Below, one piece after another: positions 6,945-8,731 of a DNA stretch of 8,731 bases (the first letter of the stretch is position 1; the number at the start of each line of letters is the position of its first letter). This stretch comes from a plasmid. Under the pieces are notes generated by a model. The model searched no databases. It had not been told where the DNA came from and saw nothing but the letters and a program-made list of their open reading frames with translations. The stretch lies in sequence record NZ_CP116681.1, one strand, 5' to 3'. The position numbers and the translations under genes were made by a program.

Positions 6945-6972
6945 ATTTAACATAAAATCTCTTATACGAAGC
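6945..6972. other. pdif site, D/C orientation: ATTTAACATAA-AATCTC-TTATACGAAGC
   Basis: The XerD arm is identical to the one at 2527 and the XerC arm differs by one base, with a 6-nt spacer between them. Confidence 0.7.
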
Positions 6973-7150: not shown

Positions 7151-7522
7151 CTACTTTACCCTCTTATAGTTATCATCTGCATATGAATAACCTTTAGCTT
7201 GTATCATTCTAACCTCATCTTTAGAAGCGCCATTTTTCATTAAGAGCCACAACATCATGAAATATAGTCCAGAAAAGTCTTCATAGTATTTTTCAGAAAA
7301 ATTGTTATCTTCCTCAAAATCATCTATTCGCTTTTCTAATCGATTCACCAGATCCTCAATACGATCGGCTTGCTGTTTAACAGCAATAGATTGAAAATCA
7401 TTGGTCAAAATTTTACTGAATAATTTACTGGTTCTGATTCCTTCTGAATTAGCCAATTGATCGTAGAATTCTGCTACTTGTGGATCTAACCTGACTGCAT
7501 AAGTTTTGACTTTTTCGCCCAT
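7151..7522 (-). CDS. Hypothetical 123-aa protein with a ribbon-helix-helix-like N-terminus; candidate DNA-binding regulator or centromere-binding protein
   Basis: ATG start with a strong AAGAGGTG Shine-Dalgarno 6 nt upstream on the minus strand. KTYAVRLDPQVAEFYDQLANSEG fits a beta-strand plus helix RHH pattern. A coiled-coil/acidic middle and a hydrophobic C-terminal segment follow. I recognise no family with certainty. Confidence 0.6.
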   Translation of the reverse strand: MGEKVKTYAVRLDPQVAEFYDQLANSEGIRTSKLFSKILTNDFQSIAVKQQADRIEDLVNRLEKRIDDFEEDNNFSEKYYEDFSGLYFMMLWLLMKNGASKDEVRMIQAKGYSYADDNYKRVK

Positions 7523-7544
7523 AAATTACACCTCTTATTAAAAT

Positions 7545-7830
7545 TAGATTTTGTACAAAATTAAATATATATAATTCAACTAATTAAATAAAAAATAATA
7601 ATTAGATTACGTACAAACTTATTTGTACAGAATTAATTTATTCTAAAACAAAAACTTATTTAAATATAATGCTTTTTTTATGTACAATCATGAGTACATA
7701 TTTTTTCTTAAATTTATCAATATCTTATCTAAAAAAAGTGTTGTTTTGATGTACAACCATGAGCACAGCATAAAAAATAGATAATTCAATCACTTATTCT
7801 AAAAAAAGACCATTTTTCTGTACACGTTTC
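7545..7830. repeat. Array of TGTACA(A) palindromic cores in AT-rich DNA upstream of the RHH-like gene, including three roughly 69-bp iteron-like direct repeat units
   Basis: TGTACA occurs at 7552, 7624, 7681, 7750 and 7819, with CGTACA at 7610. About 0.1 copies would be expected by chance in 280 bp at this base composition. Units at 7673-7740, 7741-7811 and 7812-7880 share tTGTACAA.CATGAG.ACA...CTAAAAAAAG. AGATT..GTACAAA is repeated at 7544 and 7601. Confidence 0.6.
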
Positions 7831-7908
7831 TGAGACCCTAAAAAATCGCTGAAATCCTTATCCTGTAAGGCTTTGAGGGGTGTCATCGTTAGATGCGTGG
7901 TGTGTGAC

Positions 7909-7933
7909 AAAAAAATCCCGGCATGTGCCGGAT
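7909..7933 (-). terminator. Strong rho-independent terminator on the minus strand inside a GC-richer island
   Basis: On the minus strand, GATCCGGCA-CAT-GCCGGGAT (5-7 bp GC stem) is followed by UUUUUUU; on the plus strand this appears as A7 followed by TCCCGGCATGTGCCGGAT. Confidence 0.6.
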
Positions 7934-8185
7934 CTTGGATTGGAAAATTGGCTAAAGTGACGTAGGGCCGGTGCTTGGTTTTGCATGGAAAAAAGTATTT
8001 ATTTCCTTGTTTAGAAAAACGTAAAAAATCAATTTTTTGTCCATTCATCCAGGTTAAAAATTTCAACCCAAAACTTTAATTATGAAAAGCTTCATAGAAC
8101 GCGTTCAAATGCGATTTAAGAGCCTTTACCTAGAAAACATAGATCTCATAGTGAAAAACACAAAACAGCTCAAAAAACGCAAATG

Positions 8186-8495
8186 AGAGCGAAATAAAGA
8201 GGTATTTTGACTTTAGATAGATGCATAGAGCGAGTGTCTACGAGCGAACTATCAAAATTTGCGCCTAGACCCTCTGAAAAACATTTTTTTGTCCTCTTTA
8301 GCCTAAGAAAGCGTAAGTTTCGTGCAGAAATTTGCTCCTGGATCGAGCGTAGCGAGTAAAAAAGTTTTATGAGCGAAGCGAATTCCAAGTTTCTTTTGCT
8401 TTTTTTTAAAGTCACGCCAGTATTAACCAAAAAATTGCCCCAACGAACTGAGCGAAAGCGAAGTTCAATAGAGTTTGAGCGAAGCGAAAACCAAG
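8186..8495. repeat. Dispersed family of paired GAGCGA hexamers (GAGCGAAGCGAA-like), including a roughly 50-bp unit duplicated about 105 bp apart
   Basis: Copies at 8186, 8228 (GAGCGAgtgtctacGAGCGAA), 8345 (GAGCGtAGCGAG), 8371 (GAGCGAAGCGAAttCCAAG), 8450 (GAGCGAaAGCGAAG) and 8477 (GAGCGAAGCGAAaaCCAAG). Units 8344-8388 and 8449-8495 align along their length. Confidence 0.6.
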
Positions 8496-8590
8496 GGCAA
8501 TTTTTCATTCCCTGGGCTTTTAATTATTTTAAAGTTTTTAAATACTTTTAAATGGCTTGAAAGCCTTATGAATAAAGGGTTTTAGCTCTT

Positions 8591-8678
8591 ATATGTCCAC
8601 GTTTACCTTGCAATATGTCCACGTTTACCTTGCAATATGTCCACGTTTACCTTGCAATATGTCCACGTTTACCTTGCA
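8591..8678. repeat. Four perfect tandem 22-bp iterons (ATATGTCCACGTTTACCTTGCA); Rep_3 origin
   Basis: Exact head-to-tail 22-bp repeats ending 53 bp before the window end, which would be immediately upstream of the rep ATG at 1 if circular. An AT-rich stretch (8521-8590) precedes them. Confidence 0.9.
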
Positions 8679-8706: not shown

Positions 8707-8731
8707 TTATACACAATAAAAAATAGTGGCT

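Follow-up and report, generated by a model that had tools for sequence, protein, structure and literature searches.

A covariation-supported, strand-specific hairpin array upstream of the iterons of Rep_3 plasmids in Acinetobacter

Why does a small plasmid keep about a kilobase of DNA without a convincing gene right beside its iterons? The question is raised by positions 7523–8590 of a plasmid sequence of 8,731 bp (record NZ_CP116681.1), which in its full length we call the window. This plasmid belongs to the Rep_3/OrfX type of small plasmids in Acinetobacter. A first-pass annotation, made from the letters of the sequence, had proposed that the region is either an unusually elaborate origin with accessory protein-binding arrays or a non-protein-coding system, such as a centromere or an RNA locus. 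Our results show that it is not a single element but a composite of three parts, namely an AT-rich block (7523–7850), a middle block (7850–8160) and an array of hairpins (8228–8505). The array is our main finding, and its structure is strongly supported by covariation.

The region amounts to 1068 of the 8731 bp (12.2%), in line with the initial estimate of more than 12% of the replicon, and it is indeed poor in genes. Its only open reading frames (ORFs) of at least 40 amino acids (aa) encode 90, 42, 112, 50 and 60 aa. Three of these were scanned for protein families (90 aa with a TTG start, minus strand, 7794–8066; 112 aa, minus strand; 60 aa, plus strand), with no match in Pfam or NCBIfam. 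The early doubts about two of the frames were justified. The 60-aa frame was rejected as a gene because relatives carry 1-nt indels in it, and the same indels would break the overlapping 112-aa frame; the 90-aa frame, annotated elsewhere as 84 aa, falls to substitutions, frameshifts and stops that are described below. The region is rich in repeats, and each of the three non-iteron repeat systems recognized at first sight stands well above chance. TGTACA occurs seven times in the window against 2.15 expected, five of them within 7552–7824. GAGCGA also occurs seven times (1.56 expected), with six copies within 8187–8482, all on the plus strand, while GAGC-N3–4-GCGA was found four times against 0.11 expected, again on the plus strand throughout (8345–8487). 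The rep iterons form a distinct 22-bp family at 8591–8678, as had been recognized.

All 1068 bp recur at 100% identity in plasmids of A. baumannii and A. nosocomialis. A megablast search against 72,556 plasmids matched 480 records, and the matches were nested: 133 records span most of the region, others begin at about 7867 or about 8163–8227, and many begin only at about 8328–8345. The distribution of the segments widens with nearness to the iterons. The comparison with related plasmids that had been suggested as a check sorted the sub-blocks into a widespread iteron side and lineage-specific left blocks. The left two-thirds (7523–8160) is limited to a few backbone lineages, where it travels together with an operon of a ribbon-helix-helix (RHH)-like gene and a zinc-ribbon gene. 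This part lies outside any shared origin; apart from a spurious ORF, it consists of regulatory DNA of an ordinary, lineage-specific kind. The notion of an elaborate origin stands for 8228–8590 only, which lies upstream of the iterons in nearly all related Rep_3 replicons examined, and fails for 7523–8160.

We aligned seven plasmids with unrelated iterons and with Rep proteins that are 54–62% identical (alignment A1), and found 8228–8550 to be near-invariant across all of them. At the sequence level, conservation of the array exceeds that of both Rep and the iterons. Its features in the window are as follows:

8228–8247, plus strand: near-invariant 20-mer GAGCGAGTGTCTACGAGCGA, invariant in alignment A1
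8345–8355, plus strand: mini-hairpin unit GAGC-GTA-GCGA
8369–8383, plus strand: hairpin AT(GAGC-GAA-GCGA)AT, followed by a T-rich tract at 8391–8407
8430–8505, plus strand: three-way junction, with an outer stem of 8430–8440 paired to 8495–8505
8445–8466, plus strand: junction hairpin 1, GAACT-GAGCGAAAGCGA-AGTTC
8473–8491, plus strand: junction hairpin 2, GTTT-GAGCGAAGCGA-AAAC

The unit of the array has the form GA-GC-loop-GC-GA, in which two G-C pairs are capped by a loop of 3–4 nt and flanked by potential tandem G·A pairs. The lower stem beneath the unit varies in sequence with compensation. Among 145 unique units, the flanks were complementary over 2.54 bp on average, compared to 1.16 ± 0.08 bp in shuffled pairings, and formed 16 distinct stems. 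For instance, the stem flanking the hairpin at 8369–8383 reads GTAT/ATAC, GCAT/ATGC, CTT/AAG or CT/AG in relatives. The 20-mer is also predicted to fold into a hairpin, with the pairs G·A, A·G, G-C, C-G, G·A, A·G, G-C and T-A and the loop GTCT. Its pair 3–18 occurs as G-C, A-T (18 instances), C-G or G·T, and its pair 4–17 as C-G or T·G.

The three-way junction appears in both the minimum free energy (MFE) and the centroid folds. Its covariation was assessed in 27 diverse copies aligned with MAFFT (alignment A3). In these sequences, whose search pattern took the G/C core of the outer stem for granted but left the covarying outer-stem positions and both inner hairpins unselected, 97.8% of the cells pair, compared to 86.7 ± 0.7% after shuffling, and none of 500 shuffles reached the observed value. 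Twelve of the 22 pairs changed on both sides, and 66 cells changed on both sides against 17.7 in the shuffles. In slid controls, where the partners were moved by 1–3 columns, pairing was 25–49%. The outer stem occurs as AAAATTGCC/GGCAATTTT, AAAACTGCC/GGCAGTTTT, AAAACAGCC/GGCTGTTTT and AAAATCGCC/GGCGATTTT. Hairpin 1 occurs as GAACT/AGTTC, GAATC/GATTC, GAAGC/GCTTC, GCTGT/ACAGC, GCTGC/GCAGC and GACC/GGTC, and is swapped for unrelated hairpins at two loci (L093, L164); hairpin 2 occurs as GTTT/AAAC, GTAC/GTAC and GTCC/GGGC.

How widespread is this array? By sensitive BLAST, 856 records of PLSDB contain the block, 846 from Acinetobacter, and it is almost never annotated. Among 80 GTDB loci fetched via Rep, nearly all with at least ~340 nt of upstream sequence carry the block, which precedes Rep in an unchanged orientation. 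Only part of the block is kept in L020 and L071–L073, and L085 has a diverged copy. The core of the 20-mer served as an independent probe of metagenomes and yielded 46 true loci. Where these have enough flank, a Rep_3 gene lies 390–1020 nt downstream in all but one case (L111), with Rep identities down to ~30%, and OrfX was often undetected. A mobile repeat, such as a miniature inverted-repeat transposable element or a repetitive extragenic palindrome, was rejected because the true 20-mer matches with enough flank all precede a Rep_3 gene, save L111. An origin of transfer was rejected because in MOBQ plasmids the array sits downstream of mobQ, apart from the divergent mob intergenic region, which we take to be the expected place of such an origin. 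In some lineages the 20-mer is duplicated, with the copies ~75–125 nt apart where measured, and in two of them (L071, L073) the junction is missing. Multiple 20-mers, or metagenome contigs with two to three complete units of array plus Rep_3 gene, were seen in L071, L073, L133, L146, L191 and L195.

As far as our incomplete coverage of the Acinetobacter plasmid literature extends, the array has not been described there, and the papers within that coverage mention only iterons and an A+T-rich region. Full-text searches gave zero matches to the core of the 20-mer, and the unit GAGCGAAGCGAA or its complement appeared only in unrelated papers. Apparently, the array is undescribed.

Which strand carries the structure, and does it act as DNA or as RNA? 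In a motif scan of the window, units were found on the plus strand only. The one-sided changes in the junction comprise four genuine G·T wobbles on the plus strand and zero A·C pairs. Pairs 3–18 and 4–17 of the 20-mer add further G·T wobbles, and A·C was seen only at pair 7–14 of an odd second-copy variant. Since the wobbles read as G·T on the plus strand, the functional strand would be the rep-sense strand. The loops of the units were GAA (55), GTA (29), AAA (11), TTTA (10), GAAA (9), GGA (6), ATA (6), GATA (5) and others. Triloops make up 77%, and 115 of the 145 unique units (79%) match GCGNAGC or GCGNNAGC. The motif is that of the 'mini-hairpin DNA' of Hirao and colleagues, which is extraordinarily stable as DNA and is bound poorly by the single-stranded-DNA-binding protein SSB (PMC13037366). 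Phage G4 (GCGAAAGC) and phages St-1 and alpha3 (GCGTTAGC) have mini-hairpins of this type where their primase starts (PMC13037366), and a related mini-hairpin, CCGAAGG, occurs in the single-strand initiation (ssi) signal ssiA of RSF1010 (PMC13037366; PMC8567376). The window holds GCGAAAGC at 8452–8459 and GCGAAGC at 8373 and 8479.

Because 79% of the units fit the G4 mini-hairpin consensus, we favor an ssi-type reading of the array. A role in initiation on single-stranded DNA is further favored by the zero match in Rfam, the zero conserved promoter, and the fixed position and orientation by the AT-rich repeats and the iterons. By analogy, then, the array may be a single-stranded-DNA initiation or priming auxiliary of the vegetative origin (oriV), a tentative reading whose prospects we put somewhat below even. 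The explanation of the region as a whole, in which the array has this ssi-type role and the GTACA repeats of the left block have an operator role, is our best one and likewise falls somewhat short of an even chance.

Possibly, the array works as follows. Rep would open the AT-rich element and a helicase would travel leftward, upon which the exposed plus strand would fold into very stable hairpins that SSB binds poorly. These hairpins would mark a fixed entry site for a primase or primosome, or would stabilize the open complex. The array would then be an ssi-like signal that aids initiation without setting replicon specificity, which would explain why it stays constant amid diverging iterons and diverging DNA-binding domains of Rep.

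Judged by analogy, the nearest functional parallels would be the G4-type ssi signals, ssiA and ssiB of RSF1010 and, more loosely, the single-strand origin (sso) cassettes of rolling-circle plasmids. As in ssi signals, the array has an origin-side position in fixed orientation, conserved hairpins on one strand, and the GCGNAGC or GCGNNAGC motif. The complementary-strand origins of G4, St-1 and alpha3 likewise have strand-specific clusters of single-stranded-DNA hairpins by the origin, with mini-hairpins of the GCGAAAGC or GCGTTAGC type and poor SSB binding (PMC13037366). They differ from the array, in which four to six units keep the frame GA-GC...GC-GA and are joined by a 20-mer and a three-way junction; the resemblance to the G4 origin is one of motif. 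The host replicon of the array, moreover, is an iteron-bearing Rep_3 theta plasmid. A G4-type 'G site' downstream of oriR is present in the IncFII plasmid R1.

The IncQ plasmid RSF1010 also combines hairpin ssi signals with iterons and an AT-rich region in its oriV, and its ssiA has a mini-hairpin with a GAA loop (PMC13037366; PMC8567376). In contrast to our plasmid, which lacks a primase and has its units on one strand, RSF1010 has two 40-nt signals on opposite strands and its own primase, RepB'. The Rep_3 iteron origins of pSC101, pPS10 and R6K gamma share the order of AT-rich repeats, iterons, rep promoter and rep. Unlike those origins, ours has the hairpin array flanking its AT-rich element, and no DnaA box (TTATCCACA, at most one mismatch) was found in 7523–8590, the nearest being TTATACACA at 8707. 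The sso cassettes, finally, are like the array in being non-coding, orientation-dependent, highly structured and common to plasmids with different Rep proteins; however, they serve Rep_1 and Rep_2 replicons, whereas the array accompanies Rep_3 and iterons.

Several observations weigh against an initiation role, or against the structure behind it. One contig of A. apis (L020) combines identical iterons with a Rep of 92% identity, yet is missing most of the array; at ~940–1000 of this locus, the 20-mer and all units are lost while the AT-rich repeats and identical iterons are kept. The complete plasmid pMsp22 (L211) keeps the 20-mer and the upstream units, but at its positions 1795–1818 all that is left of the junction is a plain hairpin, AAAAATTGCCC-GG-GGCAATTTTTT, in the order A-run, hairpin, T-run. 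Parts of the array are dispensable, as these natural variants show. According to a review, the minimal replicon of pMAC consists of repB and four repeats, with fragment limits that are not stated (PMC5559437). In view of L020, pMsp22 and pMAC, the array is probably accessory rather than essential. At L111, the junction is present with only a weak Rep-like match (24% identity) downstream. The strand call rests on ~8 wobble cases, and Watson-Crick covariation suits plus-strand RNA equally well, while tolerance of G·U is also a trait of RNA. Lastly, the MFE z-scores of 8225–8512 are unremarkable (+0.27 and +0.31 as DNA, −1.40 as RNA). The structural claim therefore rests on comparative evidence: the first-pass description of the region as highly structured is borne out by covariation and not by folding energy.

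The first alternative to weigh is that the array is transcribed, and that it acts as a structured non-coding or cis-acting plus-strand RNA that regulates replication or rep, or as an RNA scaffold. We consider this unlikely, but not negligibly so. Apart from the covariation and the G·U-type wobbles expected of an RNA, the loops GAAA, GAGA and GTAA are of the GNRA type, and the fold scores better as RNA than as DNA. Triloops, however, predominate among the units and fit DNA mini-hairpins better. Moreover, a search of the whole window against Rfam 15 at E-values up to 10 gave only a chance-level match to SNORD26 on the minus strand (E = 9.7). No promoter-like site was found on the plus strand in 8100–8430, the 5' flanks of the 20-mer are not conserved, the neighboring genes point either way, and a canonical terminator was not seen.

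Published 454 small-RNA data for pAB2 (strain ATCC 17978), a plasmid that shares 95.6% identity with ours over the region, do contain reads from it. Low, unstranded stretches correspond to window positions 7760–7980, 8438–8674, 8350–8377 and 8300–8326 and to shorter pieces, and the array stretches among them count in favor of transcription; yet they fall below the expression cut-off of the authors. The only plasmid candidate that passed this cut-off is exprReg_29 (pAB2 11279–11302, window 8709–8731). Since it lies directly upstream of the rep start codon, it is probably the leader of the rep mRNA rather than a small RNA. The AB5075 RNA-interactome papers do not mention plasmid small RNAs.

The first-pass annotation had also raised accessory protein-binding arrays. 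The GAGCGA family departs from this idea in that it behaves as base-paired hairpins of a single strand, not as a simple duplex array for protein binding. Still, the GAGC...GCGA units and the 20-mer might be duplex-DNA sites at which a conserved protein, such as OrfX, a host factor or RepM through its near-invariant C-terminal domain, builds a nucleoprotein complex at oriV, with hairpins as a secondary matter. This explanation is rather improbable. It would account for the GAGC and GCGA cores, which vary far less than the stems or the loops do, but 16 compensating flanking stems and the replacement of hairpins by unrelated ones would be unexpected. OrfX as the binder is weakened because it went undetected in many array-bearing loci. 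In RepM, the C-terminal ~70 residues (~237–316; window 709–948), which lie beyond the two winged-helix domains (WH1 and WH2) of Pfam, are always better conserved than those domains (e.g., 80% vs. 48% identity). They accompany the array to loci where the C-terminus is 36–49% and the N-terminus 29–38% identical, in a comparison confined to Rep_3 proteins that have the domain. Pfam does not cover this domain, and its single-sequence model is of low confidence (predicted local distance difference test, pLDDT, 61) and has no fold match, with nothing below E = 3.7 in a Foldseek search of the PDB.

A bolder idea brings the array and this domain together, and we regard it as quite unlikely. The array may represent an unrecognized class of origin element in Rep_3 plasmids of Acinetobacter. 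Once folded as a single strand, it would be recognized by the host primase or by RepM through its equally conserved C-terminal domain, and would fix the first primer or helicase site. It may also aid conversion to duplex after natural transformation or mobilization. The array and the Rep C-terminal domain would then form a constant 'engine', and the iterons with WH1 and WH2 an exchangeable 'specificity cassette'.

A very unlikely alternative is that the array mainly insulates the origin, with the outer stem and its A-run and T-run as a bidirectional terminator and the other hairpins as pause or stability elements. What keeps this reading alive is the plain hairpin of pMsp22, which in its sequence looks like a bidirectional terminator: of the entire junction, pMsp22 retains only the outer stem (AAAAATTGCCC...GGGCAATTTTT), flanked by A and T runs. 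In several plasmids the upstream mobQ is transcribed toward the origin, and a covarying terminator at 7908–7934 shows that insulation is used in this backbone. On the other hand, terminators rarely keep invariant 20-mers and loop-flanking cores at ~30% Rep identity, a terminator scan made no call at the array, and a 55-nt branched insert in the loop of a terminator is atypical.

If the array is indeed an origin element that aids initiation, it would offer a testable handle on the start of replication in Rep_3 plasmids of Acinetobacter. Rep_3 is the largest plasmid group of this genus and carries OXA-24/72, OXA-58, tet39 and other resistance modules. Its origin has so far been described as iterons and rep, with or without orfX, and published backbone descriptions give only 'iterons-repA-orfX' (PMC13141974; PMC13621841). 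The array would revise this map. It would also inform the design of minimal shuttle vectors and of compatible vector pairs, and would offer a genus-wide marker or curing target. Furthermore, it would be a rare natural case of mini-hairpin DNA with evolutionary evidence of function.

Between the array and rep lie the other parts of the origin:

8514–8555: AT-rich element with three ~10-nt TTTT(T)AAAT repeats, 27% GC, conserved in alignment A1 and in diverged loci
8560–8583: inverted repeat AAAGCCTTATGAATAAAGGGTTTT, separating the AT-rich element from the iterons
8591–8678, plus strand: four 22-bp iterons ATATGTCCACGTTTACCTTGCA, upstream of the Rep_3 gene

By analogy with other iteron origins, the AT-rich element is a probable DNA-unwinding element. 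The arms of the inverted repeat, AAGCCTT/AAGGCTT, recur with variable spacer length. The iterons differ among plasmids that share the hairpin array, and the Rep protein has Rep3_N and Rep3_C domains. Across 8228–8590, 8591–8678 and 1–1519 we observed a mosaic, in which the array and the Rep C-terminus are constant while the iterons and WH1/WH2 of Rep are variable. This mosaic has the look of a specificity cassette that is exchanged while its flanks stay constant, and could promote recombination between co-resident backbones.

What, then, does the remaining two-thirds of the region do? The left block is the upstream region of a minus-strand operon:

7523–7850: AT-rich control region, 14–23% GC, upstream of the RHH-like/zinc-ribbon operon
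7151–7522, minus strand: RHH-like gene, 123 aa
6978–7151, minus strand: zinc-ribbon gene, 57 aa, CxxC...CxxC, overlapping the 123-aa gene
7552, 7624, 7681, 7750 and 7819: TGTACA
7610, 7693 and 7762: variants CGTACA, AGTACA and AGCACA, respectively
7796–7824, minus strand: promoter-like TGTACA-17-TAGAAT, facing the RHH-like gene, with a TGTACA repeat as its −35 hexamer

GC content is 14–19% at 7500–7750 and 45% at 7850–8000. The promoter-like site is the only one that faces the operon; it was recognized as a consensus match, and sites of this kind are no more frequent in the region than in shuffles. The repeats of 7523–7850 likely form an array with an operator or other control role. One of the two operon products, the RHH-like or the zinc-ribbon protein, would bind the GTACA repeats and thereby control its own operon. 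In the r3-T5 backbone L004, six TGTACA copies lie in ~215 bp, against 0.54 expected in the locus, upstream of a homologue of the zinc-ribbon gene, whose counterpart in r3-T5 plasmids is known as 'orf71'. In the pAJ14-type backbone L005, the 123-aa homologue is 40% identical and the zinc-ribbon protein 78% identical, and the four GTAAAC copies of the locus all fall within the corresponding 200 bp, at spacings of 72, 72 and 46 bp. As to which protein is the binder, the relatives point in different directions: TGTACA stays in L004 without the RHH-like gene, and the repeats of L005 differ despite the 78% identical zinc-ribbon protein. The 57-aa CxxC...CxxC protein is 64–78% identical across backbones where its 123-aa partner is 40% identical or missing.

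The label 'RHH-like' is itself compatible with, rather than demanded by, a weak match of the 123-aa protein to DUF6364 (E = 0.13). A profile search of the PDB gave zero matches, and a single-sequence AlphaFold model (pLDDT 54) predicts an unstructured N-terminus followed by two short helices. Our locus resembles the operator arrays that RHH or omega/ParG-type repressors have upstream of their own genes: its short repeats occupy the promoter of a small gene whose N-terminus may be RHH, and their sequence shifts where the protein diverges. It differs in spacing, which at 57–72 bp is far wider than in heptad or tetramer-box arrays, in the persistence of the array without the gene in r3-T5 backbones, and in that the RHH fold is putative here.

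Alternatively, the TGTACA array and the RHH-like protein might constitute a single-protein partition or stability system, with the array as a centromere rather than a simple operator. Five to eight sites, 57–72 bp apart over ~280 bp of very AT-rich DNA, exceed the needs of autoregulation, and the N-terminal segment of the 123-aa protein is predicted to be compatible with strand-helix-helix, followed by long helices. Yet, the protein is only weakly assigned to the RHH fold, the array is also found where the RHH gene is missing, and the block is absent from most related plasmids. Above all, neither the ORFs of the plasmid nor its annotated products include ParA, ParM or TubZ. In the absence of a partition NTPase gene, a true centromere is improbable, and the classical centromere envisaged in the first-pass annotation is not supported.

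The middle block contains the terminator and the frame that has been mistaken for a gene:

7794–8066 (90 aa, TTG start) or 7794–8048 (84 aa, ATG at 8048, as called by the Prokaryotic Genome Annotation Pipeline, PGAP), minus strand: spurious ORF
7853–7875: palindrome AAATCCTTA-N5-TAAGGCTTT (CCTTAT...ATAAGG), with arms kept and spacers different in L005, L036 and L019
7890–7907: invariant 18-mer TTAGATGCGTGGTGTGTG, adjoining the terminator
7908–7934, minus strand: intrinsic terminator, hairpin 7917–7932 followed by a T-run
8079–8108, minus strand: promoter-like TTGAAC-18-CATAAT, kept in L004 and absent in L005/pAJ14-type backbones

PGAP annotates the 84-aa frame as a hypothetical protein in some records and not in others (WP_001014303; WP_001014301 in pMMCU3). 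A codon-substitution analysis had been named as the way in which a hidden conserved gene could come to light, but by that analysis the frame is non-coding. Compared to L004, substitutions number 6, 17 and 12 at codon positions 1, 2 and 3, the codon changes are 5 synonymous and 23 non-synonymous, and there are four 1-nt indels. A 1-nt deletion shifts the frame in pAB2, and in-frame stops interrupt it in L005, L036, L019 and L084. We rejected the frame as a gene because of this substitution pattern, the frameshifts, the stops and the zero family matches. The spurious 'hypothetical protein' can be removed from annotations.

As noted at first sight, the 90-aa frame crosses the minus-strand terminator (stem 7932–7917 and T-run). 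This is the sole terminator-like site in a scan of the region, and its stem covaries: CCGGCA/TGCCGG in the window and L004, GCCGGTA/TACCGGC in L005, L036 and L019, and GTCGGTA/TACCGAC in L084. The T-run is present on the minus strand only, and therefore the terminator serves leftward transcription. The TTGAAC-18-CATAAT site may, on this weak sequence evidence, start a ~160-nt minus-strand transcript that ends at this terminator; the fold of this candidate is unremarkable (z = −1.35). The 18-mer TTAGATGCGTGGTGTGTG is invariant in six sequences (alignment A6) whose mean column identity is 69%. The inverted repeats at 7853–7875 (AAATCCTTA..TAAGGCTTT) and 8560–8583 (AAAGCCTTA..AAAGGGTTT) are related and lie ~700 bp apart, one adjoining the terminator and the other adjoining the iterons, and relatives keep the arms of both while varying the spacer length.

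The setting of the region agrees with published accounts of this backbone as 'iterons-repA-orfX bounded by pdif sites' (PMC13141974; PMC13621841). Annotated relatives encode repM, a 'plasmid replication DNA-binding protein' (OrfX), BrnT/BrnA, ZnuD2 and a DIP1984-family gene. Three pdif (XerC/D) sites with zero mismatches to the consensus lie at 1829–1854, 2527–2552 and 6945–6970. The backbone module extends from 6970 across the origin as far as 1829, and from the pdif positions it follows that 7523–8590 falls within it. Two of the pdif sites flank a Sel1-repeat gene (1871–2437) as a dif module, and in a close relative blaOXA-72 occupies this place.

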